Of a stretch of 34,947 bases of DNA, positions 3 to 29,542 are shown piece by piece. The notes below the pieces were generated by a model. The model was given only the letters and a program-made list of their open reading frames with translations, did no database searches and was not told where the DNA came from. Source of the stretch: an uncultured Thermococci archaeon. Lineage in GTDB: Archaea > CAYQAE01 > CAYVLA01. Position numbers and translations under genes: made by a program. The DNA is taken from contig CAZJVP010000067.1 of NCBI GenBank assembly GCA_964549615.1, positions 1-34,947 on the forward strand. The letters run 5' to 3'. How positions within the stretch are numbered: the first letter of the stretch is position 1; every line of letters begins with the position of its first letter.

Positions 3-94
3 TGGGGCCGCCCGGATTTGAACCGGAGTCGCCAGCACCCCAGTCCAGCCGACGCCGGAAGCTGGAAGGATGGACCAGGCTACCCTACGGCCCC
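3..94 (-). tRNA. tRNA-Pro(GGG) with a 17-nt intron at position 32/33 (intron = 43..59)
   Basis: The reverse complement reads GGGGCCG-TA-GGGTAGCCTGGTCCATCCT-T-CCAGC-T-[TCCGGCGTCGGCTGGAC]-TGGGGT-GCTGG-CGAC-TCCGG-TTCAAAT-CCGGG-CGGCCCC-A. Acceptor stem GGGGCCG/CGGCCCC, T-loop TTCAAAT, anticodon stem CCAGC/GCTGG. Removing the bracketed 17 nt gives the 7-nt loop TT-GGG-GT. CCA is not encoded (next bases are CT). Confidence 0.93.
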
Positions 95-1558: not shown

Positions 1559-3364
1559 CTAGATCTTCACGAAGTCAAGCCCCAGCTCGTCCAGCGTCTT
1601 CCTGGTGGGAATGCCGTTTGAGTCCCATCCCCTGACCGCGTAGTAGCTGTCCAGCATCTCCTCCAGCTTCACAGTCACTCCCCGTGACCCGCCTTTCAGC
1701 AGGGGCTCCTTGATGAACCGATCGGGCAGGCGGTCATCGCGCCGGTCGAAGCCCTCGCGCACGTTGAAGGCCCTCTCGAGAGAGTACACGCGCTCGCCGA
1801 TAGTCATGATATCCTCTTGATTGTACTCGACACCGGTGACGGCCTTGAGGAGGCGCGCAAGGTACTCCTGGTTCACGTTGTAGCCCAGGAACTTGCACAC
1901 GACCAGCGAATCCATGGCGGCATATAGGTCCTGCCCACGAACAAGCAGGTCGGCCTTGCCTGACCAGCTGAACCTATCGATCAGTTTGGGGACGCCAAGT
2001 ACTTCCCAGCCAATCATGTAGCCGCGCAGGTGGCATCCGCCGCGGTTGGAGGTCGCATAGGCCAGCCCCATCCCCTGCGAGCCCCTAGGATCGTACGCTG
2101 GAAGCTCCAACCCCTTGACGCTCATCGAGTACTGCCCCGCCCCGTATCGCTCGGCGAAGCGTTTCGACCCCTCCCCGAGCTCCAGGCCAAGCCCCTCCCG
2201 GCACGCGATCTGCGGAATGAGGGCCTTCAGCTTCTGGCCGTCGCCGAACTCGACCTTCTCCTTGAGTATGCCCCGCTGGGAGAGCTCCATCGCACAGCCG
2301 ATGGTGACCCCGGTCGAGATCGTGTCCAATCCATAGTCGTTGCACAGGTAGTTTGCCTCTGCCACCGTCTCCAGATCGAAGACTCCACACTCGGGCCCCA
2401 GCGCGAATGCTGTCTCATACTCGGGGCCGTCTCCCGATGCCCTGGAGGTGGCCGTCTTTCTACCACAGCCTATCGGGCAGCCGAAACACGCGCTCCGCCT
2501 CTTGAGTATCTTTTCGGTCACCGACTCCCCCGAAACGTCGTCGGCCTTTTCGGAGAAGCCCTCCTGGAAGTTGCGGACCGGGAGAAGGCCGTGCGAGTTG
2601 ATGACGTTCATGAGCACGTTCGTGCCGAACTTGGGCAAAGCACGCGACGTGATGGGGCTCTCGTCAAGCTTCTTCTTCGTCTCCGCAACATAGAACTTGA
2701 GCGACTCCGGATCCGCAACCTCTACCCTGGCGGACCCTCTTACGAGGATGGCCTTGAGGTTCTTTGATCCCATGACCGCTCCGACCCCGCCCCTCGCTGC
2801 TACCCCGCCTCTACCCCCATCACCCCTCTTGTCGAACATTATCGAAGAAATGAGGACAAGCCTTTCCCCCGCGGGGCCAATGCATGCAACCCGAAATTCC
2901 CTGCCACCGTATCCAGCAAGGGTTTGGGTAGCCTCGTGGACCCTCATTCCCCAGTAGTCGCTGCCGTCCTTAATGTCGACCGCATCCTCCTCGATCACCA
3001 AGAGGCATGGCTTTTCAGCCCTCCCCTCAATGACTAATGCGTCGTAGCCGGCCCTCTTCAGTTCAGGGCCCCAGCTTCCTCCCGCGTTGGCATCGAGTAT
3101 CGTGTTTGTGAGGGGCGACTTGGTCGAGACGCTCATCCTGCCCGAGGTGGGAACGGCCGTACCTGTCACAGGTCCCGTGGCGAAAATGAGCTTGTTCCCG
3201 GGGCTGAGGGGATCCAGGCCGGGTCTCAGCTCCTCGTAAAGCATTCTTGCGGCGAGCCCGCGCCCACCGAGAAACTTCTGCAGGTCAGAGCGCCGGGGAA
3301 CCTCCCTGGAGATTCTGCCCGAAGTAAGATCAACCCTGAGAATCGAGTTCATCCAGCCGTGCGT
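1559..3364 (-). CDS. aor: Tungsten-dependent aldehyde:ferredoxin oxidoreductase family protein
   Basis: LGGRG, KSPLT, GPAGE, RGGVGAVMGSKNLKAI, CFGCPIGC (4Fe-4S), GPEYET, DTIS, YDPRG, RGGCH, DDRLP-RF. The start is uncertain: ACG at 3364 by SD spacing, ATG at 3352, or GTG at 3433 from the ORF track. Confidence 0.95.
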   Translation of the reverse strand, partial: THGWMNSILRVDLTSGRISREVPRRSDLQKFLGGRGLAARMLYEELRPGLDPLSPGNKLIFATGPVTGTAVPTSGRMSVSTKSPLTNTILDANAGGSWGPELKRAGYDALVIEGRAEKPCLLVIEEDAVDIKDGSDYWGMRVHEATQTLAGYGGREFRVACIGPAGERLVLISSIMFDKRGDGGRGGVAARGGVGAVMGSKNLKAILVRGSARVEVADPESLKFYVAETKKKLDESPITSRALPKFGTNVLMNVINSHGLLPVRNFQEGFSEKADDVSGESVTEKILKRRSACFGCPIGCGRKTATSRASGDGPEYETAFALGPECGVFDLETVAEANYLCNDYGLDTISTGVTIGCAMELSQRGILKEKVEFGDGQKLKALIPQIACREGLGLELGEGSKRFAERYGAGQYSMSVKGLELPAYDPRGSQGMGLAYATSNRGGCHLRGYMIGWEVLGVPKLIDRFSWSGKADLLVRGQDLYAAMDSLVVCKFLGYNVNQEYLARLLKAVTGVEYNQEDIMTIGERVYSLERAFNVREGFDRRDDRLPDRFIKEPLLKGGSRGVTVKLEEMLDSYYAVRGWDSNGIPTRKTLDELGLDFVKI

Positions 3365-3504
3365 AGATTCACCGCCAAGTGACCCGTCCTCCGGACCCTT
3401 ATCCGCTTTAATGTTTCCACCGACACGGCTCACAAACCGCTTGCGATTTGGTTGTCGGAAACAGCTTTTAGGCGACGCCAGGGCCGTAAAGTGGGTGGGC
3501 TCGT

Positions 3505-5967: not shown

Positions 5968-6067
5968 CGGCGCCGCTGCCTGTTCCAGACGATGGTAAAA
6001 CAAAACGTTAGAAATAACAGCCGATTTCTACAAAATCACTATATTTTCGTAACAAGTATGGCGTCGC

Positions 6068-6247
6068 GTGGAATACAACGAGGACGAAGTAGTCTACAGC
6101 CTTCTTCAGCGAAAGAAGACCGAATACCAGGTTCGATGCCCAAGGTGCAAGCGCCTCTACAAGCGAGTCGAGCTAAACAACCACATCTTCCAGAAGCACA
6201 GGGCGTACTGGGACAAGCACAAGGTCTCCATAATGCTGAGGTACTGA
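6068..6247 (+). CDS. 59-aa C2H2 zinc-finger microprotein (absent from the ORF track)
   Basis: GTG..TGA translates to MEYNEDEVVYSLLQRKKTEYQVRCPRCKRLYKRVELNNHIFQKHRAYWDKHKVSIMLRY, motif C-x2-C-x11-H-x4-H. TATA-like CTATATTT at 6039-6046; fills an otherwise empty gap. Confidence 0.8.
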   Translation: MEYNEDEVVYSLLQRKKTEYQVRCPRCKRLYKRVELNNHIFQKHRAYWDKHKVSIMLRY

Positions 6248-6335
6248 GCCCAACCTACTTCTTGGCGGCCAATCTACCCTGTCTGAAGCTGCCACTGCTA
6301 ACCGGGGCCCAGTTCTGACAGCGGTCTGCCGGTCC

Positions 6336-7541
6336 CTAGGAAAGCTTCGGGCGCATGGATTCGTCAAATACGACGGGCACGGATCCCTTGGCGATGCTCA
6401 GCCTCACCGCCTCGTTGACTGCGGTGCCGATCAGCGCCTGTTCAGGAAGCGGCCTAATCTTCTTGAGCTTGCGCAGCATCCTCCTGCGGACGGCTTTGGC
6501 CTGGGCGCTCGAAAGCCCCCTAGTCCGGGCGTGGATCCTGAGGATATCGTCGATCGGCTGGACGATGCTGTCCGCACCGTAGCCCGCCCATTCGACCCTC
6601 TGGGGATCATCCCAGTCCGGATAGGGCTTGAAGAAGTAGGGGTTGTAGGTCTCAACGCCGCCCCTCGTGGTCACGAAGTTGCAGTTGCGGTTGGCGTGGT
6701 CGGCCGTGTAGGTGCCCTCGGTGCCCGTCAGCTGAAGCCCTTGATTGGTCAGGTTTGGGTTGGAATCCGGAAGCACCCACGAAGTCTGGACGAACAGGAC
6801 GGAGCCGCCCTCCCACTCGATCACGGCCTGTACGGCGTCGAAGGCGTCCTTCCCTTTCTGGGGCAGGAACTTCTTCTGCCCGAATGCAATGACCCGAACG
6901 GGCTTCAGGCCCGTGATGAAGTAGTACGCATCCACGTAGTGCACCCCGATGTACTCGAAGGGAGAGCTTTGTTCGCACCACCGCCCGAAGACCTCAAGCG
7001 GCATCTCCCGCCTCTCCTCTATCCACGCATGGCCGTGAAGCATCTCGCCAAGGTCGCCGCGCATGTACCTGTACTTCGCCGCCCTTATCGCCTTGTCGTG
7101 CCTCTTGTGGTAGTCGGTGTATACGTAGGCTGCCTCCTCAGAGGCTTTCCTGATTATCGCGTGCGCATCCGCGGTCTTTAGGCAGAGGGGCTTCTCGACG
7201 ATGCAGTCGAAGCCGTGCTCGATCGATCTCAGCACCACGTCGGTATGGAGATGGTCCGGAGTCGCAACCACGACCACGCCTGGCTCCCTCAGGTCGTCGA
7301 GGGCTTCCAAGTAGCAGTCAGGGTGGGACGACTCCGGGTCCGACTTCCTGGGGTCCGGATATCCCTCGAACCTCTCCTTCGGGAAGACCTCACGGAGATG
7401 CAGGATTGTGCTCGGCCGCCTCGTGGCGACCAGGACGCGATCGATCTTGCCCTTCCTTCGCTCCTGGAAAATCGTTGGAAGAATGACCTCCTCCGAGATC
7501 ATACCGCCGCCAACGAGAAGGATGTTCAGCTTGCCGTCCAT
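6336..7541 (-). CDS. Gfo/Idh/MocA family NAD(P)-dependent oxidoreductase
   Basis: ILLVGGGMIS Rossmann motif, VATPDHLH, VEKP, H-VD. TATA TTTATA about 25 nt upstream of ATG 7541 supports a leaderless start. Confidence 0.9.
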   Translation of the reverse strand: MDGKLNILLVGGGMISEEVILPTIFQERRKGKIDRVLVATRRPSTILHLREVFPKERFEGYPDPRKSDPESSHPDCYLEALDDLREPGVVVVATPDHLHTDVVLRSIEHGFDCIVEKPLCLKTADAHAIIRKASEEAAYVYTDYHKRHDKAIRAAKYRYMRGDLGEMLHGHAWIEERREMPLEVFGRWCEQSSPFEYIGVHYVDAYYFITGLKPVRVIAFGQKKFLPQKGKDAFDAVQAVIEWEGGSVLFVQTSWVLPDSNPNLTNQGLQLTGTEGTYTADHANRNCNFVTTRGGVETYNPYFFKPYPDWDDPQRVEWAGYGADSIVQPIDDILRIHARTRGLSSAQAKAVRRRMLRKLKKIRPLPEQALIGTAVNEAVRLSIAKGSVPVVFDESMRPKLS

Positions 7542-16940: not shown

Positions 16941-18014
16941 CTAGCACCGGACGGGCAGCCGACCGTGCTTCATCACGGTCTGCGTGATGGCCTCAAGCCC
17001 ACGGTCCCTCTGGGCGGGCGGCACCGTCTCGGTTATGCCAAGGACGAGGCCTTTTCCGGGGCTTGCCTGGCTCAAGAGATTTCGCACGTACCCTCGTATC
17101 CCCTCGGAAGCCCTGTAGAATATGACCTCGGGGATGTTGACCCAAATGGCGAGCTTCTCGCCCCATAGGGCTCGCGCCTCCCTGAGCCCGAGGTCCCCGA
17201 TGGGGGGCGGCGTGAAGGCCTCCACCACGTCCAGGCCCGTCTCCGGCAGCAGATCCTTTAAGCACCTCAACCGCCCGTCCATGTGTGACTGGACGATCTT
17301 TCCCCCGGAGTGCAGAATGTCGGAGTAGCTCTGGTAGTAAGGGATGCAGTAGCGACGGAAAAGGTCGGGATTCACCAAGACCCCGTCGATGTTGTCGCCC
17401 ACGTTCACTATCCTCGGCGGGGCACGAGCGACGATCCTCATCCTCTCCTGGACCTTCAGGTCGATCGCCTCCATCAGCTCCTCCACCTTCTCCCTCCTCC
17501 TCCTGAGCTCGACGACGAACCTCCTGAAGCCCATGTAGTTGACGATCAGTTGCATGAGGGGCGTGTAGCCCGTGCCGACCTGAAGGACGCCGTGGTCGGC
17601 AACCTCCTGCATCCTTTGCTCCAAGTCCGCGTATGCAGGCTTGCAGACCTCATCCTCGATGATGAACTTCACGACCCTGTAGTCATCCGGCCCCTTGATC
17701 ATCCGCTCGACGACCCATCTGTCTCCCCTTTCTCCACCCTCGGACGGCAGGTTTATCCTAGTCTTCTGGGTCACCTCGCCAACGGGCGTCTTGTAGGTCG
17801 TGACGGAATAGTCGCCCAGCGTCTGCGTCTCTGAGGTCACGTTGGGCGTGGAGGCCTTGAAGACCGATGTCGGATACGCGATCCCCATGCCCGCCTTCAG
17901 CAGCGCCTCGAGTACCTGAGGGTCCCGCGGGGTGTGCCCTTTCTTGGGCATCCACGGCACGTAGTCCGGCTCGCCCCAGGTCAAGGCTTGTATCGCCCTC
18001 TCCCTCATCCTCAA
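16941..18014 (-). CDS. Uroporphyrinogen decarboxylase/MtaA-like methyltransferase family protein
   Basis: RER---AL----PD-VP, TP-G, MG---F, P-LF--Y--PYY, SHMDG, EAFTPPP-GD, TE-VP. SD GCGGTGA 5 nt before TTG 18014. Confidence 0.85.
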   Translation of the reverse strand: MRMRERAIQALTWGEPDYVPWMPKKGHTPRDPQVLEALLKAGMGIAYPTSVFKASTPNVTSETQTLGDYSVTTYKTPVGEVTQKTRINLPSEGGERGDRWVVERMIKGPDDYRVVKFIIEDEVCKPAYADLEQRMQEVADHGVLQVGTGYTPLMQLIVNYMGFRRFVVELRRRREKVEELMEAIDLKVQERMRIVARAPPRIVNVGDNIDGVLVNPDLFRRYCIPYYQSYSDILHSGGKIVQSHMDGRLRCLKDLLPETGLDVVEAFTPPPIGDLGLREARALWGEKLAIWVNIPEVIFYRASEGIRGYVRNLLSQASPGKGLVLGITETVPPAQRDRGLEAITQTVMKHGRLPVRC

Positions 18015-18154
18015 CTGGATCACCGCGGCCAGCCGTGGGACGCTCTTCAGGTTCGCCTTTCTGGGGATATCTACATTTATGTAGCACCGATCTGCATGGC
18101 CCGCAGAGGGCACAGGACTTGCGCACGATAACGCACCCAATAACCGGAAAGGAG

Positions 18155-19147
18155 ATGCCCGAGTTCCTCACTGGCGTCATCACCCCCATGCTGACGGCGT
18201 TGAATGAGGACCTCACGCTCGACGAGGAAGGCAACAGATCGCTCATCCAGTGGTACAAGAAGACGGGCGCAGTGACCACGGTCTTCGCCAGATCCGGGGT
18301 GGGGCAGATGGCACATTTCTCCTTCGAACAGGTCAAGACTCTCATCGACATCGCGGTGGACGAGGCAGGGGACGAGATCTTCGTCCTTGCCGGGACGTCC
18401 GGGACGCTCGGCGGGCGAGATCCGGCCAGAAGACCGTCGGAGCAGAAATACGTGGAGGAGACGCTGGAGCTCAGCCGTTACGCTGAAAGGCAAGGGGCAA
18501 CGGGCGTTGTCATCGTATGCCTGGGCTTGGAACCCTCCTCCAACCTGGCGGACAAGATCTTCGACTTTTTCAAAAGGGTCAATGCCTCGATCGACATCCC
18601 CATAGTGATCTACGAACCGCCCGCGACAAACCCAGCCTACAGCATAACCCCTGCCCTCCTCCACAGGCTTGCGGACCTGCCCAAGGTCAAAGGGATGAAG
18701 CTGTCCTCCCCCGACATGCTCAAGTTCGGGCTACTTTGCGATGCGACCAAGGACCAGGACTTCACCATGATCTCAGGGCACGAGGGCGCCTTCCTCACCT
18801 CGCTCGTCTTGGGCGCAGGCGGGGTGATAGGTGGAGGCTGCAACACCCACCCAGAGCTGATACGCGAGATCTTCGACGCCTTCATGGCGGGAGACTGGGA
18901 GAGGGCTCGAAGGGCACAGTTCGAAGTTGCCAGGCTGTTGGGAACGAGGACGCTGGTCCGCGACCCTTACTCGGGGGTTGCTCTCAACGCAGCAAAGATC
19001 TACCTTGCCAGGAAGGGCGTGAAGGTCAAGCCGTACCATTGGCCGGAAGGGAGGTCCGAAAGCGGAAGAACGGACCTAACCGAGAAGGATCTGGACCTGG
19101 CCAAGAAGGCGATAGATGAGGCGCTGCAGTCGATCAGGAGAATCTAG
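18155..19147 (+). CDS. Dihydrodipicolinate synthase/N-acetylneuraminate lyase family aldolase
   Basis: GVITP--T, IP-VIYE-P (catalytic Tyr), GMKLS (Schiff-base Lys), GA-G-IGG--N--PE. SD AAAGGAG before ATG 18155. Confidence 0.88.
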   Translation: MPEFLTGVITPMLTALNEDLTLDEEGNRSLIQWYKKTGAVTTVFARSGVGQMAHFSFEQVKTLIDIAVDEAGDEIFVLAGTSGTLGGRDPARRPSEQKYVEETLELSRYAERQGATGVVIVCLGLEPSSNLADKIFDFFKRVNASIDIPIVIYEPPATNPAYSITPALLHRLADLPKVKGMKLSSPDMLKFGLLCDATKDQDFTMISGHEGAFLTSLVLGAGGVIGGGCNTHPELIREIFDAFMAGDWERARRAQFEVARLLGTRTLVRDPYSGVALNAAKIYLARKGVKVKPYHWPEGRSESGRTDLTEKDLDLAKKAIDEALQSIRRI

Positions 19148-20193
19148 AAAGCCTTCCAGCCCTCTTCGTATCCCTTCTCGTACATCGCGACGACGTTCTC
19201 GGGCGGGGTGTTCGCCTGTATGTTGTGGCATGGCGCCAAAATGTAGCCGCCTCCCCTGCCCAGGATGCGCAGGTTCTCCACGACCTCCCTCCTGACATCC
19301 TCCACCGTTCCGAACGGCAGGGTCTGCTGGTTGTCCATCCCCCCGTGGAAGACCAGTTTCTGGCCGAAGTCGCGCTTCAGCCCCTCCCGGTCCATGCCCC
19401 TGCAGCGCCACTGAATGGGGTTGAGCACGTCTATGCCGGCCCTCACCATGTCCGGAAGTATCTGCCGGATGGCCCCGTCGCTGTGGTGGAACACATACGC
19501 CCCTTCGGAGTGTGCAAGATCGATCACCCGCTTCATCCTAGGGATCAGGAACTCCCTTATCTGCGCAGGCGACATCAAAAGGCCAGTCTGGGATCCCAGG
19601 TCCTCCGCCACATAGGTGATCATCACCTGGCCCGGGATCTGCTCATAGATCCTTCGGGTGTTCTCGTAGGCCAGATCGAACAGCTTGTCCAAGCAGTAAT
19701 GAACGATGTCTGGGTGACGGACGAGGTCAACATAGCCCTGCCACTGTCCGCGAAGATTCTTGTAGACCAAGAACGGCTCAGACCCACCACCCCTGATGGG
19801 GCGGTTTTCCATCCCCTTGATCTGGCCCGGTATGCCAGAGTAATCCCACCAATCCGGGTCGGGCCACTCATAGTTCCGCTTGATCTCCTCCAGACTTGAG
19901 TACTGGGCGAGCGGGTGGTACACAACCTCGGTGTACACGCCGGTTCCGTAGTGGACGTCCTTGTACCTGCAACCGTAGATATCCTCCCCCTCCGGCGGCT
20001 TCGGCCCGACGTACCTGGGGGCCACCGTAACCGGCGTGTCGATGTGGAGGATCTCCAAGGCTTCGTCCAGATTCTTGCAACCCAGATACCTGACCAACCT
20101 CTCGTTTGCCTCGTTCGTCGCCCAGTAGTCCATGGGCACCCGGTCAGGCCTCCTTCGCTGAAGCACCGCGAGCCAACGCTCCCTGGGGGTCAT
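19144..20193 (-). CDS. Uroporphyrinogen decarboxylase/MtaA-like methyltransferase family protein
   Basis: MTPRER-LA-L----PDRVP, HPL, WPDP, EDLGSQ, HHSDG, LNPIQ, FHGG-D-Q, GGYILAPCHNIQ--TP-EN. A possible CTG start lies at 20208. Confidence 0.9.
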   Translation of the reverse strand: MTPRERWLAVLQRRRPDRVPMDYWATNEANERLVRYLGCKNLDEALEILHIDTPVTVAPRYVGPKPPEGEDIYGCRYKDVHYGTGVYTEVVYHPLAQYSSLEEIKRNYEWPDPDWWDYSGIPGQIKGMENRPIRGGGSEPFLVYKNLRGQWQGYVDLVRHPDIVHYCLDKLFDLAYENTRRIYEQIPGQVMITYVAEDLGSQTGLLMSPAQIREFLIPRMKRVIDLAHSEGAYVFHHSDGAIRQILPDMVRAGIDVLNPIQWRCRGMDREGLKRDFGQKLVFHGGMDNQQTLPFGTVEDVRREVVENLRILGRGGGYILAPCHNIQANTPPENVVAMYEKGYEEGWKAF

Positions 20194-20388
20194 GGTTTCC
20201 TTTGGCAGACTATCCGCTCCTCTCCCGCGGGTCGCCAGCAGGCGTTTATTTGTTTCACTGTGGGGCAGGCGCACGGAGCCGCAGCGAGCCCATGAAGCGC
20301 TAGCACTTGCCGCTGGGACGCCGCGTCCATTCGCCACAAGCATGCCTTTTCCGCACGTCGGGTCGGTTCTCACGAAGGTCGAGCGTAT

Positions 20389-21498
20389 CTACGCCTGTAC
20401 TGCAGCCGGCCCGAGGTCGAATCCGGCCTTCATGGCTCGGTACCTCTGGTAGTGGCAGAAATTCTGCCAGGAGATGTCGGGGGGCACGGAGTGGTCGATG
20501 TGGGCGATGTACCCGCCCGTAGCGACGACCGGCCAGACCCTGTCCACCTCGGCCTCTATCTCGGCTTTTCCTTTGGTGAGGGCCTGCTTGTCGATGCCGC
20601 CGAACATGACCAGTTTCCGTCCATACTCCTTCCTGAGTTGTCGCACGTCCATGCCGGACCGCACCTCAAGCGGCCAGATGGCGTTGAGCCCGGCCTTGAG
20701 CCATAGGGGGATGAGGGTGCGCACATCGCCATCGCTGTCCACGCCGATCAAGTCCACGCCTCGCGATCGCAGGTACTTGCACACTATCCTGTACCTAGGA
20801 AGCATGAACTCCTTAAACATCTCGGGGGCAAGCAGGGGCCCGGTTCGGTACGCCATGTCCTCCCAGAAGCCGAATATGTCGATGTCGACATCGTCCAGCA
20901 TCTTGCCCAGGATGGCGAGGAGAACCTCAACACGCTGATCCATCATCTTCTCGACGAATTCCGGCCTCTCGTAGAAGGCCCTGCAAAGGTTCTTCAGGCC
21001 CAGCAGGTTCCGCAACGGGCCGAAGAAGCCGCCCCACCTGTCCGGGAAGTACATCAGCGGCGCGGTCCTTTTCTTCCACTCCTTCACTCTCGCCTCCCAG
21101 TCCTTCGGGAATCTCTCATCCAGCTTGGGCGCCAGCCTCTCTCTGACCAGACGATCGAAGTCCTCCTCGGTCTCCACCGGGAACTTCACGAACTGGGGCA
21201 TGCTCGACCAGCCCCTGTGCTCCTTGAACTCACGCTTCAGGATGCCCTCGTGGTCGATGTAAAGGACGGTTTCAGTGGTCTCCTCGATGACGGTCTTCTC
21301 GAACGGGGGCCAGGGGCCAGCCGATACCGGCACGCCCAGCATCGGGTCGTGGGGGAATATCTCGTGTATCGGGCGCCCGTCCCAGCCCTCTTTTCGCCAT
21401 CTGGCTTCGGTCTCGGGCCACGTTCCCTCGCCCGAGATCCAAGGCCGGTCGGGCTTCTCAAAGTGTGTTATGGCATGGTACCTTTCCCTCGGGGTCAT
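20389..21498 (-). CDS. Uroporphyrinogen decarboxylase/MtaA-like methyltransferase family protein
   Basis: MTPRER------F-KPDR, W-ET--RW--EG, EDMAY--GP, VDSDG, P-EV--GMD, GGIDK, GGYI---DHSVPPD. TATA TTTAAG about 26 nt upstream of ATG 21498. Confidence 0.9.
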   Translation of the reverse strand: MTPRERYHAITHFEKPDRPWISGEGTWPETEARWRKEGWDGRPIHEIFPHDPMLGVPVSAGPWPPFEKTVIEETTETVLYIDHEGILKREFKEHRGWSSMPQFVKFPVETEEDFDRLVRERLAPKLDERFPKDWEARVKEWKKRTAPLMYFPDRWGGFFGPLRNLLGLKNLCRAFYERPEFVEKMMDQRVEVLLAILGKMLDDVDIDIFGFWEDMAYRTGPLLAPEMFKEFMLPRYRIVCKYLRSRGVDLIGVDSDGDVRTLIPLWLKAGLNAIWPLEVRSGMDVRQLRKEYGRKLVMFGGIDKQALTKGKAEIEAEVDRVWPVVATGGYIAHIDHSVPPDISWQNFCHYQRYRAMKAGFDLGPAAVQA

Positions 21499-21593
21499 GC
21501 GCGCAGGCCGGAAGGCGGCCAAACTTAAATGAATGGGTGGTCGCCTCCAGCTGGCGGCAGTGGAGCTTTCCTGGAAACGATTCCGGCGTCCGG

Positions 21594-22400
21594 CTAATCC
21601 CGTCGCGCAAGCTCCCGCATGGCCTCGTCCACCCCCATGTTCTCGTGGACTATGCCCGCTATCGCCCAAACCATCTTCGTCGGGTCCTTTGCCTGGAAGA
21701 CATTCCTCCCGATGCTTGCGCCTGCTGCGCCAGCCTGGACGGCTCCCCAAACCGTCTGCAGCAGCTCCTTTTCCTGGCCTCTTGCGGGTCCTCCGGCTAT
21801 TACCACGGGCGCGGGGCATCCCTTGACGACTTCCCTGAATGAGTCGATATCTCCGGTGTAGTTGGTCTTCACTATGTCGGCGCCCAGTTCGGCCCCGACC
21901 CTGGCCGCAAGCTTCACCGAATCGACGTCGAACTCGCTTGGCACCTTCGGGCCCCTGGGGTACATCATGGCAACGAGCGGCATTCCCCAGTGCATGCACT
22001 TCTTTGACACGCGGCCAAGGCTTGCGAGCATCTCGGATTCGTTCTCGGCCCCTACGTTGATGTGCACGCTGACAGCGTCTGCTCCAAGTTTTATCGCTTC
22101 CTCAACCGTCATGACCAGAACTTTGTTGTCCGGGTTGGGCGAAAGCTTGGTGCTTGCCGAAAGGTGCAGTATGAGGCCGATGTCCCTACCGTAGTGCCTG
22201 TGGCCGAACATCACCAAGCCCCTGTGCCCGATGACGGCGTTGGCCCCGCCGTTTGCCACCTGATCCACTGCCCTCGCCATGTCTATGAGGCCGGGAACCG
22301 GGCCGAGCGTGACGCCGTGATCCATCGGTACGATCACCGTCTTGCCCGTCTCCCTGTTCATGATCCTTTCCATTCTAACTGCTTTGCCTATCTGGGTCAT
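21594..22400 (-). CDS. aroA': 2-amino-3,7-dideoxy-D-threo-hept-6-ulosonate synthase (archaeal class I aldolase, DhnA family)
   Basis: [80 protein letters not shown]. Closely follows the MJ0400-type pattern as I recall it. Confidence 0.85.
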
Positions 22401-22738
22401 GTGTTGGGCAAGGCCTCCGCGGACCGTAAATAGGTATCCATAGAGTCGTCGAGTCCCGTATTGCTCAACGCTGGCCGCCGAGGTCCCGACGAACACCTTG
22501 GCATGGCCGTCCAGCCTCCCTCGACGATCCTGAGTAGGGGCGGACGAACCGTTGTATGGGGCCTACGTATGTGGCCGGTCGTAGGATCGTGTACTTCGAG
22601 GATGCCCTTCGGCCAGGTTATCTGGCAGCCGATCGACTTCCTGGGGCGGAGAATCCCGGCCAATCACTCCTCGTCCCGTTACTGGCTGCGCCAGCCCCTT
22701 CGCCTGGTCCGCGGAGGAGCCGAGCGTGCGTCCCAGCC

Positions 22739-24987: not shown

Positions 24988-26022
24988 TCATCTCACTTCC
25001 ACTCTGACGATTCCCTGTATCCACTGGGAACCGTCAAGGTCGTCAGCGACGAGGCTGGATCCATTTCCTGCCCTCACGACTATGATCTCGGGGTTCTCCA
25101 TTACCTGGTGCAGATCCAGCACCACGGAGTACCCGTCGGAAGCCACCAGCCTGACCCTTGACGCGGAAGCCTTCGGGGCAGCCCTTCGTAGGATGGCTGA
25201 CAGCGGCACGCCCGTGTAGTTCCTCGGCTCCAGGTGTATGTACGATCCTTTCAGCTCAGCCTGCACGGTCACTAGGTCCTCGTGGAAATCCGACTCCCTG
25301 TAGTTGAATGGCCTCTCGACCAAGCCTTCCACCTCGAACGAACTGGTCTTTTCCCAACGGTACGCGCAGGCAAAGAACCACAACGCTCCACCGACGAATA
25401 CCGCCATCAACACGTAACCCAGCCGCATCCTCCATCGATGGGCTCCGGATGGCCGGGGCACGGCTTTCAGCAGCCCCGAGCTAGACAAGGAAACCAGCAC
25501 GTGGTGGCAGAAATACCCACCGAATATCACCCCCGAGGCAAAAGCCATCGCGGCAATCACCGAGACCAGCAGGAAGGGGACGCCCGAGAGAAACAACGCT
25601 TGGAAGACGAACACGTTGGAGGCGGTCGCCAGCCCGCCCGCCAAGAGGATCTGGACCGAGCTCTCAGGCCGGGACTTGACCATCGCTGCATCCACGATCA
25701 TCCCTTCCACAGTGGAGACGAGCACGACAAGTGCCCCGTGAATGCTACCCGAAAGCATCTCGACCATGCCTTTGAGCGCGCCCGCCAGCGTGCCGGATCC
25801 CGTCTTCCCGGTGACGCATCTGGCCAGCAGGAGCCAGAACACGTGGAGGCCGGCGAGGAACTGGCCTGCCCCAAACGGCGTCCCGACGAAATCGTTCACG
25901 AGATTGGCTAGGTAGCCAACGTAGGTGCTGAGAACGCCCCCCAGAGCACTGAGGATCGAGATCGTGACAAGGTCGGTCGTCGTGAGATGCTGATGCGGCC
26001 TTGCCAGCTTCATTCCCATCAC
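24988..26022 (-). CDS. ECF S-component (YkoE-like) fused to a C-terminal molybdopterin-binding-like (Oxidored_molyb) domain
   Basis: About 6 TM helices with T-DLV---ILSALGG and K-GSG-LAG--KG-VE, a further TM helix, then V-G-VERP...YTGVPLS-IL...ASDGY...G-QW------V. Alternative ATG starts at 26019 and 26013. Confidence 0.85.
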   Translation of the reverse strand: MMGMKLARPHQHLTTTDLVTISILSALGGVLSTYVGYLANLVNDFVGTPFGAGQFLAGLHVFWLLLARCVTGKTGSGTLAGALKGMVEMLSGSIHGALVVLVSTVEGMIVDAAMVKSRPESSVQILLAGGLATASNVFVFQALFLSGVPFLLVSVIAAMAFASGVIFGGYFCHHVLVSLSSSGLLKAVPRPSGAHRWRMRLGYVLMAVFVGGALWFFACAYRWEKTSSFEVEGLVERPFNYRESDFHEDLVTVQAELKGSYIHLEPRNYTGVPLSAILRRAAPKASASRVRLVASDGYSVVLDLHQVMENPEIIVVRAGNGSSLVADDLDGSQWIQGIVRVEVR

Positions 26023-26041: not shown

Positions 26042-27928
26042 CTACGGGAGGACCATTTCTATCCTTGCTATGTTCTTCACCATCTGTTTGCTGCTAAGCC
26101 CCTCCCCGACAAGCCTCAACGGCCATTCATCGGTCAGGATGTCTCCGTCCTTGAGGTAGGCTAGGATGATCTTGTCGTTGCGCCAAAGCATCGTGCTGTT
26201 GACCGTTGCAGTGAAGCCGTCCGATGCGACGATCCTAACCTCATACCCCCTTCTGGCAAGGTCGTCGTCAAAAAGGTAGTGGCCCTCTGGATCGTCCTTT
26301 CCGTCCACGATGCTGATGATGATCCAGAGGGGAAGCCCCTCGTAAAGGTGGGTCTCGCCCTTGATCGTGACGTTCAGCGCGGTCCTGTGCTTGGTGCATG
26401 TCGCTGCGGACTGGAAGGTGGTTCTGTTCAGGACATACTCCGACTTGCCTGACAGCACAACGGTCCAGTCTTTGACGGGCCTCACGACTCTCAGCCCCAC
26501 GACCTGCTTGACCCAGTAGTGGCCGTCGGTGATCGCGTCGCCCTGCCCTACGAATGCCAGGCGCAACGGCATTCCGCTGAACCGGCGGCTCCCATCCTCC
26601 TCGTAGTACAGGATGCTGGTCAGTGACCCGATGCCCATGCTCTGGCCCCGCACATCGTATACCCTGACCTTTCCCTCAACCTCGGACCGGCTCAGCGTCA
26701 TGACATAACCGTCCGATCCGGTAACCTCGACGCTGTAGTTCTCGGGAAGATCTCCGGCCTGCCGCAGGACGGTGAGCAGCGGAACACCGACAAGTTCGTA
26801 AGGCCCCACGACGGCACCAGTTGTCTTCAGATACCCTCCTCGGCCTCGGACCTGCTCGAGAGCAGTCACCTCGCCGAAGTAGAGCGTCCTTGAAGTTACG
26901 CCCTTCACGCTCAGCACCCAGAGCGGAAGGAGCTCTGCCCTTGCCAGATCCGCCAACACCCAATCGGGGCAGGCAAGCACAGGAGGGCCGGCCAAAGGCT
27001 GTCCGTCCATGCAGTCCGCGACGACGATGGCATCGTTCTTAGCCACCCGGCCGCTCTCCAGACTCACTGAGCCCTCCCCCGTGAGCCTGATCTCGTAGCC
27101 CGACTCCGCGTAGCTTAGGTTGAATGAGTCCTCGCCCCGCCTCTTGCCGCCGTCGATCAGTGCAAGCAACCTCCACAATGCGATTCCGCTCCAGGCCCTC
27201 CCTTGGGGATCGGTCACGTTGACCCTGGCATCGAAGCACAGGGTCCCGAACTCGGTCCGGGAAAGGTTCTTGGTTTGTGAGCCGGCAAGCCAGAGGAACC
27301 ACTCGTGGCCGAAGGCGGGTCCCGGCAGGACGTCGATTCTCCAAACGTTCCTGACCATGCGCCCTCCAGCCGAGGGATTCAGGAAGTATCCCTGGCCCGC
27401 GGCGGACGTGTAGCGCGCATCCTCGTTGCTGAACTCTCCATCATCGGGCAGGAAGACCATGCGCGGTCCCTCCTCCCAGCCTGGAATCCGCGTGCCGTCC
27501 TTCGACAGGGCAAGGATGAGATGACCCTGTAGCGAGTGCAGGTCCGAATCGGGGTAGACGTTGAAGTAGGAGTATTCCTGCAGGTAGCCATCGGTGCTGG
27601 ATACCCTTAAGATATCTCCAGGTGCCATCCCCCCAACCTCCTCCACCAATCTGGACACCAATACTCCCTCGTACGTTGCCGGGGCATCCCAGTTGCCGAC
27701 CCTGTTCTCAAACGCCACAACTCCGGACACCGAAGCCAAGGCCTCCAGATCCGAGTAGCGGAGCACGCGAGTGACGCCGTCTTTTCCCGTGATGGTGACA
27801 TTCGGGTACGTCCCGGTCTCGCTCGTGCCCCTGGCGCGAAAGCCTAGATAGGCTAGCCCTGTGCAGAGGACGGCGGCCGCGAACACGAGGAGGCCAATCT
27901 CCACCTTTCGACTTTCGAGAGCAGGCAT
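26042..27928 (-). CDS. Membrane-anchored protein with four tandem molybdopterin-binding-like (Oxidored_molyb) domains
   Basis: N-terminal TM anchor, then four repeats carrying (Y/W)-G(V/I/L)-L, mostly V---DG(Y/F), IL-----DG, P-R(L/M) and (W/M)V(K/R)-V--I. Confidence 0.8.
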   Translation of the reverse strand: MPALESRKVEIGLLVFAAAVLCTGLAYLGFRARGTSETGTYPNVTITGKDGVTRVLRYSDLEALASVSGVVAFENRVGNWDAPATYEGVLVSRLVEEVGGMAPGDILRVSSTDGYLQEYSYFNVYPDSDLHSLQGHLILALSKDGTRIPGWEEGPRMVFLPDDGEFSNEDARYTSAAGQGYFLNPSAGGRMVRNVWRIDVLPGPAFGHEWFLWLAGSQTKNLSRTEFGTLCFDARVNVTDPQGRAWSGIALWRLLALIDGGKRRGEDSFNLSYAESGYEIRLTGEGSVSLESGRVAKNDAIVVADCMDGQPLAGPPVLACPDWVLADLARAELLPLWVLSVKGVTSRTLYFGEVTALEQVRGRGGYLKTTGAVVGPYELVGVPLLTVLRQAGDLPENYSVEVTGSDGYVMTLSRSEVEGKVRVYDVRGQSMGIGSLTSILYYEEDGSRRFSGMPLRLAFVGQGDAITDGHYWVKQVVGLRVVRPVKDWTVVLSGKSEYVLNRTTFQSAATCTKHRTALNVTIKGETHLYEGLPLWIIISIVDGKDDPEGHYLFDDDLARRGYEVRIVASDGFTATVNSTMLWRNDKIILAYLKDGDILTDEWPLRLVGEGLSSKQMVKNIARIEMVLP

Positions 27929-27931
27929 GAG

Positions 27932-27955
27932 CGATATGTTCGCGTGAGCATATCG
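27932..27955. promoter_or_regulatory. ModE-type palindromic operator CGATATGTTC-GCGT-GAGCATATCG
   Basis: 10-bp arms with one mismatch, 24 bp in total, fitting CG-N-TAT-N12-ATA-N-CG. Lies between the minus-strand TATA (TTAAAA, 27963-27968) and ATG 27928. Confidence 0.7.
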
Positions 27956-28102
27956 ACCTTTTTTTTAACTCTTTCCATCGGGCGTCCTAGGGAAAGAGCC
28001 CTTGGGAAAAAAAGCCCCGCAGCCCTTCCTGAAAGCCGGGAACACTTATCAGCGAAAGCCGGTCCGCGTGTCGAAAACCCAGGTGGACGAGAGAGGTCAG
28101 GA

Positions 28103-29542
28103 TTGGAGATAGATCTCGGACTCGGAAAGGGGTTCTCTTTCTACCGGAGGCAGAAGGCCAACTTCAAGGTGCTCAACGCGAGGACCACCCTCGGCAGCTT
28201 CCTTGGGAATCTTACCGCCCCCTATGACCAGGTCTATGCCAAGGAACTGGGAGCTGAGCCGGTGGAGTTGGGATTTCTTTCCTCGGTCGGATCGGCCTTC
28301 GCCGCATCCTTTGCGCTGCCCGGCGGTTTTCTTGCCGATAGATGCGGGAGGAAGAAGCTGTATCTCATCGGGAGCCTGGTGGGTCTGCTCACACCCATGG
28401 TTTACTTCCTCGCGCCAAGCTGGGTCTGGTTGGTACCGGCCTACGTTTTCTCGAACGTCATGATCGCGCTGAGGGAACCCGCCTACCAAGCCATGTATGC
28501 GAGCTCCGTCGAGCCGCGCGACAGGGGGATTGCCTTCGGGATAGGGTCGACGCTCACGAGCATTCCAGTCATGCTGGCCCCGATTGCCGCGGTCGAGCTC
28601 ATGGGACATCCCGCCGCGATCACCGCTGGCCGGATACGACCACTCTACCTCCTCCAACTGATCGGGCTAGCTGCCCTATGGGTATTCGTGTTCCTACTCT
28701 TGACCGAGGAGGGCCGGAACTGGGTTGGAATTAGATCCGCCTTCGGCCCAACGGATCTTCTCTTCCTCTCCCCGTTCATCGCGATTCCACCCGCGGCCTG
28801 TCTCGTTATGGGATTGGCCCAAGGGATCAGCACAGCCGGCCTGATCCCCCTCGTATTCATGGCCTTAAGCCCCCTTCCTCTGGTCGTCGCATGGCACAGA
28901 CATCGGGATGCAACGCCGGCGCAGGAAAGCCTGAGACAGGGCGTGGGCAGGATGTTGAGCCTTCCTGGCGTCAAGGCATGGTTGGCCATGAAGGGAACCG
29001 GTGCCGCCGCCATGGGGCTGGCAAGCCCCTTCTGGCTCGTCTATGCCGCGTACGTTATCGGGGTGTCGCCCGCAGGACTAGCCTTGATGGTCAGCCTCAG
29101 GACCGTCGGCCAGCTGGTTTCGGCCCTGCCTTGGGGTATCGCGGCCGACCGAAGGGGTCGCAAGTTCACCCTGCTTTTCGGCAGGTCCTTCATGCACATC
29201 GGAATCCTCTGCTTCATATTCTCAAGGAGCCCCTGGATGCTCATCCTGGGCTACGCCCTGATGGGCGTCGCAGATGGATCCGCGTGCGTCTGGACCGTCA
29301 TAAGGATGGAGCTGGTTCCCCCTGAATCCCGGAGCGCGATGGCCAGCATGGACGCCTTCGTTTGGTATCTGCCGGTCATATTCGCAGCGATGTTGGGCGG
29401 GATAATCTACTCCTTCTGGACCAAGCTCATCTTCATCCTCTGCTTTGCGATAGATGTCGGGATCAGAATGCCGCTCGTGGCTTTCGGGGTCCCAGAGACC
29501 TCGAAGACGATTCACGCCGAGTCATGGGCTTCGGCCCGGTAG
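28103..29542 (+). CDS. Major facilitator superfamily transporter
   Basis: Motif A appears twice (GFLADRCGRKK; GIAADRRGRK), with RG-A-G and ELVP-E-R and many TM segments. SD GAGGTCA before TTG 28103. Confidence 0.9.
   Translation: MEIDLGLGKGFSFYRRQKANFKVLNARTTLGSFLGNLTAPYDQVYAKELGAEPVELGFLSSVGSAFAASFALPGGFLADRCGRKKLYLIGSLVGLLTPMVYFLAPSWVWLVPAYVFSNVMIALREPAYQAMYASSVEPRDRGIAFGIGSTLTSIPVMLAPIAAVELMGHPAAITAGRIRPLYLLQLIGLAALWVFVFLLLTEEGRNWVGIRSAFGPTDLLFLSPFIAIPPAACLVMGLAQGISTAGLIPLVFMALSPLPLVVAWHRHRDATPAQESLRQGVGRMLSLPGVKAWLAMKGTGAAAMGLASPFWLVYAAYVIGVSPAGLALMVSLRTVGQLVSALPWGIAADRRGRKFTLLFGRSFMHIGILCFIFSRSPWMLILGYALMGVADGSACVWTVIRMELVPPESRSAMASMDAFVWYLPVIFAAMLGGIIYSFWTKLIFILCFAIDVGIRMPLVAFGVPETSKTIHAESWASAR

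Follow-up and report, generated by a model that had tools for sequence, protein, structure and literature searches.

A fusion of an ECF transporter S-component with a sulfite oxidase-fold domain in an uncultured Thermococci archaeon, and its putative role in the salvage of molybdopterin-type cofactors

Structure of the operon and of the fusion protein

The window analyzed here is the 34,947-nucleotide contig CAZJVP010000067.1 (assembly GCA_964549615.1) of an uncultured Thermococci archaeon. It contains a tight four-gene operon on the minus strand (27928-22739) whose second gene encodes the S-component of an energy-coupling factor (ECF) transporter fused to a soluble domain with the fold of the sulfite oxidase (SUOX) family (Table 1). 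The other genes encode an exported accessory protein of 628 aa, a fused EcfA-EcfA' ATPase and an EcfT component. With its S-component fold, and with EcfT and two ABC ATPase domains encoded next to the S gene, the system has the make-up of a group I ECF transporter, which would use ATP to import a micronutrient. The SUOX-like domain is confined in the genome of this archaeon to two proteins, the fusion and the 628-aa protein. Our results suggest that the operon probably serves the uptake of a molybdopterin-type cofactor from the environment.

A first-pass annotation of this DNA had described an ECF S-component followed by a further transmembrane (TM) helix and a soluble domain, and this architecture was borne out by Pfam, hydropathy, AlphaFold2 (AF2) modeling and structural alignment with VIA-align. 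PF09819 (ABC_cobalt, the YkoE-type S-component family) matches residues 17-133 (E = 3.4e-16), and PF00174 (Oxidored_molyb) matches residues 264-326 (E = 1.6e-5, 25.0 bits against a cut-off of 24). The latter match is partial, covering model positions 66-133 of 169, and nothing follows the domain, which is about 120 aa long; the full-length molybdenum cofactor (Moco) domain and the dimerization domain of SUOX enzymes are absent from the fusion. A hydropathy scan revealed an extra hydrophobic segment at residues ~199-222, which includes LGYVLMAVFVGGALWFFAC. The AF2 model, built on 78 homologues (pLDDT 89.3, pTM 0.83), consists of a helical core (residues 15-181), a helix (196-220) and a beta-rich domain (229-343). 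Residues 12-194 of the model superimpose on the S-component 5edl, which we take to be YkoE of Bacillus subtilis with thiamine bound, with Z 23.7 and a root-mean-square deviation (rmsd) of 2.6 Å over 181 aa, and the core aligns with the FolT, ThiT, RibU and PanT chains at Z 11-14. The soluble domain (residues 223-344) aligns with the sulfite dehydrogenase SorA (2blf; Z 15.3, rmsd 2.0 Å, 121 aa) and, over residues 226-344, with PruR (7kos; Z 14.0, rmsd 2.1 Å, 113 aa), including its neopterin complex (7rkb; Z 13.8). In these comparisons the fused domain resembles the pterin binder PruR as closely as it does the SUOX enzymes. A profile of the fused domain (A2) searched against the PDB matched SoxC (E = 5.1e-8) and SorA (E = 1.6e-6), and PruR weakly (7kom, E = 1.2). 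The extent of the domain, ~24991-25356, agrees closely with the ~24988-25340 proposed earlier.

The single conserved Cys of the SUOX family is the metal ligand, as restated in the available text of the PruR study (PMC11194511). The fused domain had been noted as lacking Cys, and indeed the only Cys residues of the fusion are at positions 69, 172 and 219, so that the C-terminal domain, in which the motifs YTGVPL, ASDGY and GSQW begin at residues 269, 294 and 331, is free of them. Seven genuine SUOX-family proteins taken from genomes that carry the fusion served as the hhalign reference, in which only one column holds Cys in at least six of the seven sequences. When A2 was aligned to these proteins (hhalign probability 96.4%), the Ala of a near-invariant AEL motif, A255, came to stand opposite this column. 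The conserved Mo/W-ligand Cys is therefore missing from the fused domain, and it is present as C511 in the fourth domain of the 628-aa accessory protein. Counts per locus were made with custom hidden Markov models (HMMs) in 81 loci, namely 80 of the 131 genome stretches described below and the window. An iterated HMM search of these loci found 314 SUOX-like domain instances, of which 52 have the invariant Cys. This subclass (A3) aligns its own Cys with the SUOX Cys column (hhalign probability 97.9%); its members were counted in 33 loci and all lie within accessory multi-domain proteins, including domain 4 of the window. The AF2 model of domain 4 (pLDDT 94.8) aligns with chicken sulfite oxidase (3hbg; Z 16.0, rmsd 1.9 Å, 124 aa) over the chain range 151-309, which includes the residue C185 named in entry titles, and with PruR (7kom) at Z 15.6.

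In PruR, the pterin ring is stacked between Y104 and W160 and receives a hydrogen bond from N102, according to the available text of PMC11194511. Four residues of the fused domain, D296, G297, Y298 and W334, are invariant across 78 fusion-family sequences. VIA-align pairs residues 226-344 of the fusion model with PruR 31-168. Y298 lies 72 residues from the range start and PruR Y104 lies 73, while W334 is 10 and PruR W160 is 8 residues from the range end; D296-G-Y298 thus corresponds to PruR N102-x-Y104 by range offsets alone, not by residue-level alignment. At the Cys column, the fused domain has Ala and PruR has Trp, in a Pro-Trp motif.

The 628-aa protein has a single hydrophobic segment (residues 7-32) by hydropathy scan and four SUOX-fold domains by iterated HMM search, at residues 38-201, 217-334 (degenerate), 333-482 and 485-626. 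PF00174 matches it at residues 569-625 (E = 5.2e-9), and no twin-arginine signal is visible in its sequence. S-components have both termini in the cytoplasm, and since the fusion has one extra helix, the seventh, its soluble domain would lie outside the cell. The loop ahead of this helix (SSSGLLKAVPRPSGAHRWRMR) contains five Lys/Arg residues and the stretch behind it is net acidic. The odd number of TM helices, this charge distribution and the SLH- or lipoprotein-type anchors found on related domains suggest that the fused domain is probably extracellular. A tethered, non-catalytic capture or hand-off domain had been proposed at the outset; the loss of the Cys, the likeness to PruR and the probable outside location all speak for this proposal, and such a role would be the most natural reading of the domain. 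A complex prediction for the fused domain and accessory domain 4 gave a score of 0.00, which weighs neither way.

Table 1. Features of the window related to the fusion gene, with coordinates in the window
Feature	Position	Strand	Basis or description
S-component fusion gene, 344 aa	24988..26022	-	ORF (open reading frame), Pfam, homologues, AF2 model
S-component core, residues 12-194, six helices	25441..25989	-	PF09819; VIA-align Z 23.7 to 5edl
Seventh TM helix, residues 196-220, joining core to outside domain	25363..25437	-	Hydropathy, AF2
Cys-less SUOX-fold, PruR-like domain, residues 223-344, ~120 aa	24991..25356	-	PF00174, profile search, VIA-align
Accessory exported protein, 628 aa	26042..27928	-	N-terminal membrane anchor and four tandem SUOX-fold domains
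Accessory domain 4, metal-ligand Cys kept (C511, codon 26396-26398)	26051..26476	-	hhalign, AF2
Fused EcfA-EcfA' ATPase, 487 aa	23521..24984	-	TIGR04520 E 9.4e-108, TIGR04521 E 1.3e-106, two ABC_tran stretches
EcfT, CbiQ-family T component, 271 aa	22739..23554	-	PF02361 E 2.3e-26
Aldehyde:ferredoxin oxidoreductase (AOR family), outside operon	1559..3433	-	AFOR_N E 2e-77, AFOR_C E 3e-149

Distribution, companion genes and riboswitch association

A word-indexed search returned 263 proteins at E<=0.001; those listed (120) have lengths of 325-379 aa and a query coverage of 94-100%. Relatives of the fusion are encoded by 131 stretches of species-representative genomes in six or more phyla, which rules out the possibility, raised initially, of a one-off or an assembly artefact. 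The 80 kept loci belong to Hadarchaeota, Thermoplasmata, Odinarchaeota, Bacillota (including the isolate Thermovorax subterraneus DSM 21563), Bipolaricaulota, Thermotogae and Chloroflexota. In a library clustered at 50% identity, 99 clusters were found at E<=1e-30, and 36 of the 150 listed are fusions of full length; several hits of ~190 aa are restricted to the S-core, perhaps because they are fragments or stem from split genes. At locus L075 (5971-7042) the S-fusion appears as two overlapping ORFs, one for the S-core (5971-6537) and one for the domain (6449-7042), as the result of a frameshift or because the gene is truly split.

In nearly all kept loci, the genes for AA' and T come after the S-fusion. 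Most loci hold further exported SUOX-fold proteins, and homologues of the 628-aa protein are encoded upstream of the S gene in most of them. The Chloroflexota fusion has a second copy of the SUOX-like domain, the exported domain proteins of Bacillota include ones of ~2,000 aa or more, one accessory protein is equipped with SLH cell-wall anchors, and the N-terminus of a 184-aa form resembles a signal peptide. A Metallophos phosphoesterase, often fused to a SUOX-like domain, is encoded in 24 loci of archaea and Bacillota; among named proteins it comes closest to CpdA and SpdA, which are cyclic-nucleotide phosphodiesterases. The Chloroflexota phosphoesterase is instead a type I phosphodiesterase/nucleotide pyrophosphatase (NPP; 14 loci), so that two unrelated phosphodiesterase families have been recruited to the same core. 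Small kinases with weak similarity to the RIO/Bud32/APH type occur in 17 loci; no clear homologue was found in the window's own genome. Chloroflexota loci also encode a membrane-anchored protein (18 loci by blast cluster, 21 by HMM scan). In the member inspected (L066, 9732-10646, plus strand), which is encoded between EcfT and the NPP phosphodiesterase, two CxxCH heme-c motifs precede the SUOX-like domain. Judged by these motifs, proteins of this type hint at an extracytoplasmic redox step.

Rfam scans at the gathering threshold were run on 53 bacterial loci, and the Moco/tungsten cofactor (Tuco) riboswitch RF01055 was found in 25 of them (3/11, 0/17, 15/15 and 7/10 by batch, with all 25 Chloroflexota loci in the last two batches). 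The low yield of the first two batches (3/28) arises because the operon heads of Bacillota lie more than 6 kb upstream. In 21 of the 25 Chloroflexota loci the element has the orientation of the operon and precedes the S gene by no more than ~500 nt. At L065, where the upstream region of S is cut off, it stands ahead of the adjoining four-domain gene, and it was not detected by the scan in L070, L071 and L072. RF01055 heads the operon in the Bacillota loci L015 and L032, the latter from Thermovorax subterraneus DSM 21563, and, according to a genome-wide scan with fetched upstream DNA, also in the genomes G017, G018, G021 and G038, which brings the total to 6 of 12 Bacillota-type genomes. In G017 and G018 it lies 140-165 nt before giant domain-repeat ORFs, in G021 ahead of the first ORF and in G038 ahead of the first domain ORF. 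No RF01055 was found anywhere in 11 genomes of Thermotogae and Bipolaricaulota by genome-wide scan.

The P3 stem of the aptamer is missing from the L060 and L015 alignments and present in that of L077, and 18 of the 25 hits are 119-125 nt long and look P3-less by length. According to the available text of Regulski 2008 (PMC2408646), P3-less aptamers are associated with tungsten-cofactor genes. Riboswitches for thiamine pyrophosphate (TPP), tetrahydrofolate or other vitamins were found in cis in none of the 53 loci, so that the mark by which YkoE S-components belong to the thiamine regulon, a TPP riboswitch in cis, was not present. A TPP riboswitch lies ~800 nt from the S-fusion of L022 (4860-4963, minus strand), on the opposite strand and divergent from the operon. 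In Syntrophomonas-type genomes, the Moco riboswitch is immediately followed by a giant ORF in three cases (L082, 1-6578, minus strand; L083, 2399-8284, minus strand; L084, 486-5498, plus strand), with lengths of 1,670 to more than 2,190 aa. Two of these ORFs contain five or more domain copies, and that of L084 has no domain hit.

Host cofactor genes, proposed function and alternatives

The genes for Moco biosynthesis and for AOR-family enzymes were searched in 41 genomes carrying the fusion. MoaC was found in 16 genomes and MoeA_N in the same 16, leaving 25 without both, and MoaE was found in 8. The AOR N-terminal domain is present in 40 of the 41 carriers, with 1-17 copies each. The window's own genome is 99.46% complete, and searches of the whole genome found no MoaA C-terminal domain, MoaC, MoaE or MoeA. 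AOR matches number five in this genome, and the one that lies in the window is likely a consumer of imported cofactor; the genome also holds a PF00384 protein. No recognizable ModA, WtpA or TupA was found in it by PF13531 and PF12727 searches. The hits to these families were rejected as Mo/W-binding proteins, being PstS, in a pst-phoU cluster, and a PotD/F homologue; a MoCF_biosynth hit was likewise rejected as a Moco gene, as it is CinA-like. The class and phylum of the window comprise five genomes. Three of them (G000, G042 and G044) have the fusion, no MoaC and five AOR matches each, G043 has MoaC and five AOR matches and no fusion, and G041 has none of the three. G044 is apparently the same genome as G001, the Hadarchaeota metagenome-assembled genome of L002, since the hit coordinates are identical. 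Nine of the 16 carriers with MoaC and MoeA have no detectable MoaE (PF02391), namely G002, G003, G014, G016, G018, G021, G029, G030 and G038; they are mostly Bacillota, and their molybdopterin (MPT) synthase is either missing or divergent.

An even sample of 151 Thermoplasmata genomes (requested completeness >=85) contained the fusion in 27, MoaC in 88 and AOR in 81 genomes. All 27 fusion carriers are AOR-positive, compared with 54 of the 124 non-carriers, and MoaC is absent from 22 of the 27 carriers, compared with 41 of the 124 non-carriers. The fusion accordingly occurs in 22 of the 34 genomes with AOR and without MoaC, in 5 of the 47 with both, and in none of the 70 without AOR; one genome of the sample, G125, has MoaC and neither fusion nor AOR. 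Among the five MoaC-bearing carriers, one MoaC match is partial and one has five stop codons. The 27 A1-profile matches are long, 26 of them reaching model position 345-346 and that of G136 ending at 314, and a stand-alone close S-core was not seen among the 151 genomes. In the carrier G012 (C4, 48211-50094) the Moco gene cluster looks decaying: MoaE is intact, MoaC has five stop codons (one TGA, three TAG and one TAA), and MoeA_N is matched over no more than positions 42-160, in a frame of 182 aa.

The riboswitch, the presence of AOR in hosts without MoaC and MoeA, and the co-occurrence pattern in Thermoplasmata point to a molybdopterin-type cofactor as the cargo. We therefore consider it fairly likely that the four genes combine surface capture with a dedicated group I ECF importer and salvage MPT, Moco or the tungsten cofactor from the environment. 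The 628-aa protein, exported by Sec and anchored in the membrane, would display four cofactor-free SUOX-fold domains that trap free cofactor, and its domain 4, with the metal-ligand Cys, could hold the metal-loaded form. The Cys-less domain, which the seventh helix tethers above the S-component, would receive the cofactor next and pass it into the YkoE-like core. EcfAA'T would spend ATP to topple the S-component, with release of the cargo inside, where it may serve the five AOR-family enzymes. In other lineages, the surface phosphodiesterase would trim dinucleotide or phosphate forms of the cofactor, and in bacteria the Moco/Tuco riboswitch would shut the operon off when the cofactor supply suffices. 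Cyclic pyranopterin monophosphate was rejected as a cargo for genomes without the biosynthetic pathway, because these also lack MoaE and MoeA. Import of an intact, metal-loaded cofactor is plausible because the window's genome has neither MoeA nor a known Mo/W transporter and because the metal-ligand Cys is retained in one of the accessory domains. We tentatively suggest, with rather less confidence than in the salvage function as such, that the intact W/Mo cofactor is a shared "vitamin" of anoxic communities, trapped on the cell surface and handed to the ECF importer, and that many archaea and bacteria with multiple AOR enzymes might accordingly make neither the pterin nor the metal-insertion enzyme and need no tungstate transporter.

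Other functions of the operon would account for part of these observations. It could be a new ECF-type importer of tungstate or molybdate whose SUOX-fold domains bind oxyanion and not pterin, which we regard as unlikely. Moco riboswitches commonly control molybdate and tungstate transporters, according to the available text of PMC2408646, and both the lack of a ModA-, WtpA- or TupA-type binding protein in the window's genome and the metal-ligand Cys retained by one accessory domain would fit such an importer. However, the metal alone would be of no use to the 25 of 41 carriers without MoaC and MoeA, the conserved residues fall, by range offsets, in that part of the fold which contacts the pterin, and a surface phosphodiesterase would have no role. 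In addition, S-components of the same family are known to bind organic micronutrients. These could themselves be the cargo if the system imported a non-Moco pterin or heteroaromatic vitamin, such as a folate or methanopterin precursor or thiamine/hydroxymethylpyrimidine (HMP), as would fit the YkoE ancestry of the core (PF09819, with 5edl as best fit) and the preference of PruR for small pterins. Homologues are labelled thiamin/HMP permeases by JGI, APH/RIO-like kinases occur in 17 loci, a TPP riboswitch lies near L022, and PruR binds non-Moco pterins (available text of PMC11194511). We nevertheless rate such a cargo a little lower than oxyanion, as vitamin riboswitches in cis are found in 0 of 53 loci and the Moco riboswitch in 25 of 53, the TPP element of L022 is directed away from the operon, and the fusion tracks the presence of AOR and the loss of the Moco pathway.

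The least probable of the alternatives, in our judgement, is that the exported SUOX-fold proteins act as genuine Mo/W oxidoreductases outside the cell, in the manner of SorAB/SoxCD, and that the ECF module supports them, for example by delivering cofactor or taking up product. The use of Moco by such enzymes would explain the riboswitch, the top sequence matches are SoxC and SorA, a Cys-retaining domain subclass exists, and the membrane-anchored Chloroflexota protein that joins two CxxCH heme motifs to the domain would fit, as would weak NCBIfam hits to a diheme GEGP protein. Yet the domains are only ~120-140 aa long, with a Pfam match to part of the 169-position model, the 628-aa protein shows no twin-arginine signal, and the S-fused domain has Ala at the ligand position. 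Moreover, hosts unable to make the cofactor could load such enzymes only by import, and ECF systems are known as importers.

Several observations weigh against the salvage of a molybdopterin-type cofactor. Both MoaC and MoeA are kept by 16 of the 41 carriers, and completeness is not known for those genomes that were reached through loci; the perfect agreement between MoaC and MoeA presence argues against random assembly gaps. Among the AOR-positive, MoaC-negative Thermoplasmata, 12 of 34 have no fusion, and the Fisher p-values for the association of the fusion with AOR (6e-9) and with MoaC (6e-6) in this sample overstate it, as related genomes are not independent. The Moco riboswitch suits the genes of a molybdate/tungstate importer or of Moco-using enzymes equally well. 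In the window itself, only the four-gene core is present, with no linked phosphodiesterase or kinase, and an Rfam scan found no riboswitch, RF01055 included, as expected because the window is archaeal. The diheme cytochrome fusions of Chloroflexota and the RIO/Bud32-like kinases are not accounted for. Y298 and W334 may be equivalent to the pterin-stacking Y104 and W160 of PruR, a positional inference drawn from range offsets. The closest solved relative of the S-core is presumably a thiamine-type S-component, a pocket for a large anionic dithiolene cofactor is hypothetical, and free Moco is very labile, so that an extracellular supply is uncertain. The salvage system is, finally, inferred here from sequence, models and gene context.

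In the literature we found no published description of the fusion or the salvage system, of an ECF S-component to which a comparable binding domain is tethered, or of a prokaryotic Moco uptake system. The available text of a survey of the S-component fold (PMC11109136) does not contain "molyb", "YkoE" or "PF09819", and that of a riboswitch regulon survey (PMC3766115) has no category for Moco uptake. The prevailing view, as given in the available text of PMC9026282, is that Moco is not available as a nutrient by uptake in most organisms, and a 2026 review (PMC13259868, available text) describes how pterins cross membranes as unknown. Several hundred "orphan molybdoprotein" organisms lack the biosynthetic pathway, and most of them also lack a known Mo transporter; the available text of the study describing them (PMC6147048) explains them by unknown biosynthetic components or metal-independent enzymes and does not propose salvage. 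A salvage importer, if confirmed, would provide an explanation for these genomes. It would also mean that Moco/Tuco is exchanged among the members of hot-spring, subsurface and digester communities, and auxotrophies would have to be scored differently when the metabolism of Hadarchaeota, Thermoplasmata, Bipolaricaulota, Thermotogae and Anaerolineae is reconstructed. The fusion takes its meaning from the Cys-bearing four-domain paralogue, the control by Moco riboswitches in bacteria and the missing cofactor biosynthesis of its hosts.

Among public sequencing runs, two DNA data sets containing the window were listed, both hot-spring metagenomes and one of them probably its source, and no RNA data set. 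Further genes of the window were noted. A gene for a major facilitator superfamily transporter (27944-29542, plus strand) is divergent from the operon. As called from GTG, it begins just 15 nt away from the first codon of the 628-aa gene, which makes a more internal start probable. HypA- and HypB/CobW-type nickel chaperone genes (318-1557) adjoin the AOR gene, and a tRNA (3-94, minus strand) lies at the window edge. Three URO-D family paralogues stand in a row on the minus strand (16941-18140, 19144-20373 and 20389-21999), with a DHDPS-family gene on the plus strand between them. The longest of the three overlaps the ORF of a DeoC/LacD-family aldolase (21594-22496), and one start site of the pair is therefore probably shorter.

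Comparison with known transporters and pterin-binding proteins

The system resembles the group I ECF importer YkoEDC in its PF09819 S-core of the same fold (Z 23.7) and in the dedicated EcfAA' and EcfT encoded in the operon. In contrast to YkoEDC, it has an additional TM helix, an outside domain and exported paralogues of that domain, and its bacterial relatives are regulated by the Moco riboswitch and not by a TPP riboswitch. The seventh helix raises the question of how toppling copes with it. As described in the available text of PMC11194511, PruR of Agrobacterium and other Proteobacteria (7kos, 7kom, 7rkb, 7kp2) is likewise a small, Cys-less SUOX fold, and it lies outside the cytoplasm, as the fused domain probably does. 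Conserved Tyr and Trp residues stand at corresponding range offsets in the two. PruR is, however, a soluble periplasmic signaling partner of the cyclase DcpA, with Trp in place of the Cys and with small non-Moco pterins as ligands (same text of PMC11194511), whereas the fused domain has Ala at this position, a tether to a transporter and a Moco-regulon context. The neighbors of the fusion are ECF genes and not those of a pruR-dcpA operon.

With the Moco domains of SUOX enzymes (SorA 2blf, SoxC 2xts, chicken sulfite oxidase 1sox and YedY 1xdq) the fused domain shares the fold (Z 12-16) and sequence similarity at E = 5e-8, and accessory domain 4 retains the ligand Cys. Unlike these enzymes, the window proteins comprise only the core of ~120-140 aa, without a dimerization or heme domain, the fused domain has no Cys, and the tandem arrays are exported without a visible twin-arginine signal. 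The general understanding is that ECF importers need no binding proteins outside the cytoplasm. Substrate-binding domains are fused to type I ABC importers in GlnPQ and OpuA, and CbiN and NikN belong to metal ECF systems. The likeness to both groups lies in an extracytoplasmic element that is attached to, or works with, the transporter and feeds it substrate, while fold and transporter class differ. If the salvage function holds true, the fused domain would be the first tethered extracytoplasmic binding domain for ECF transporters.

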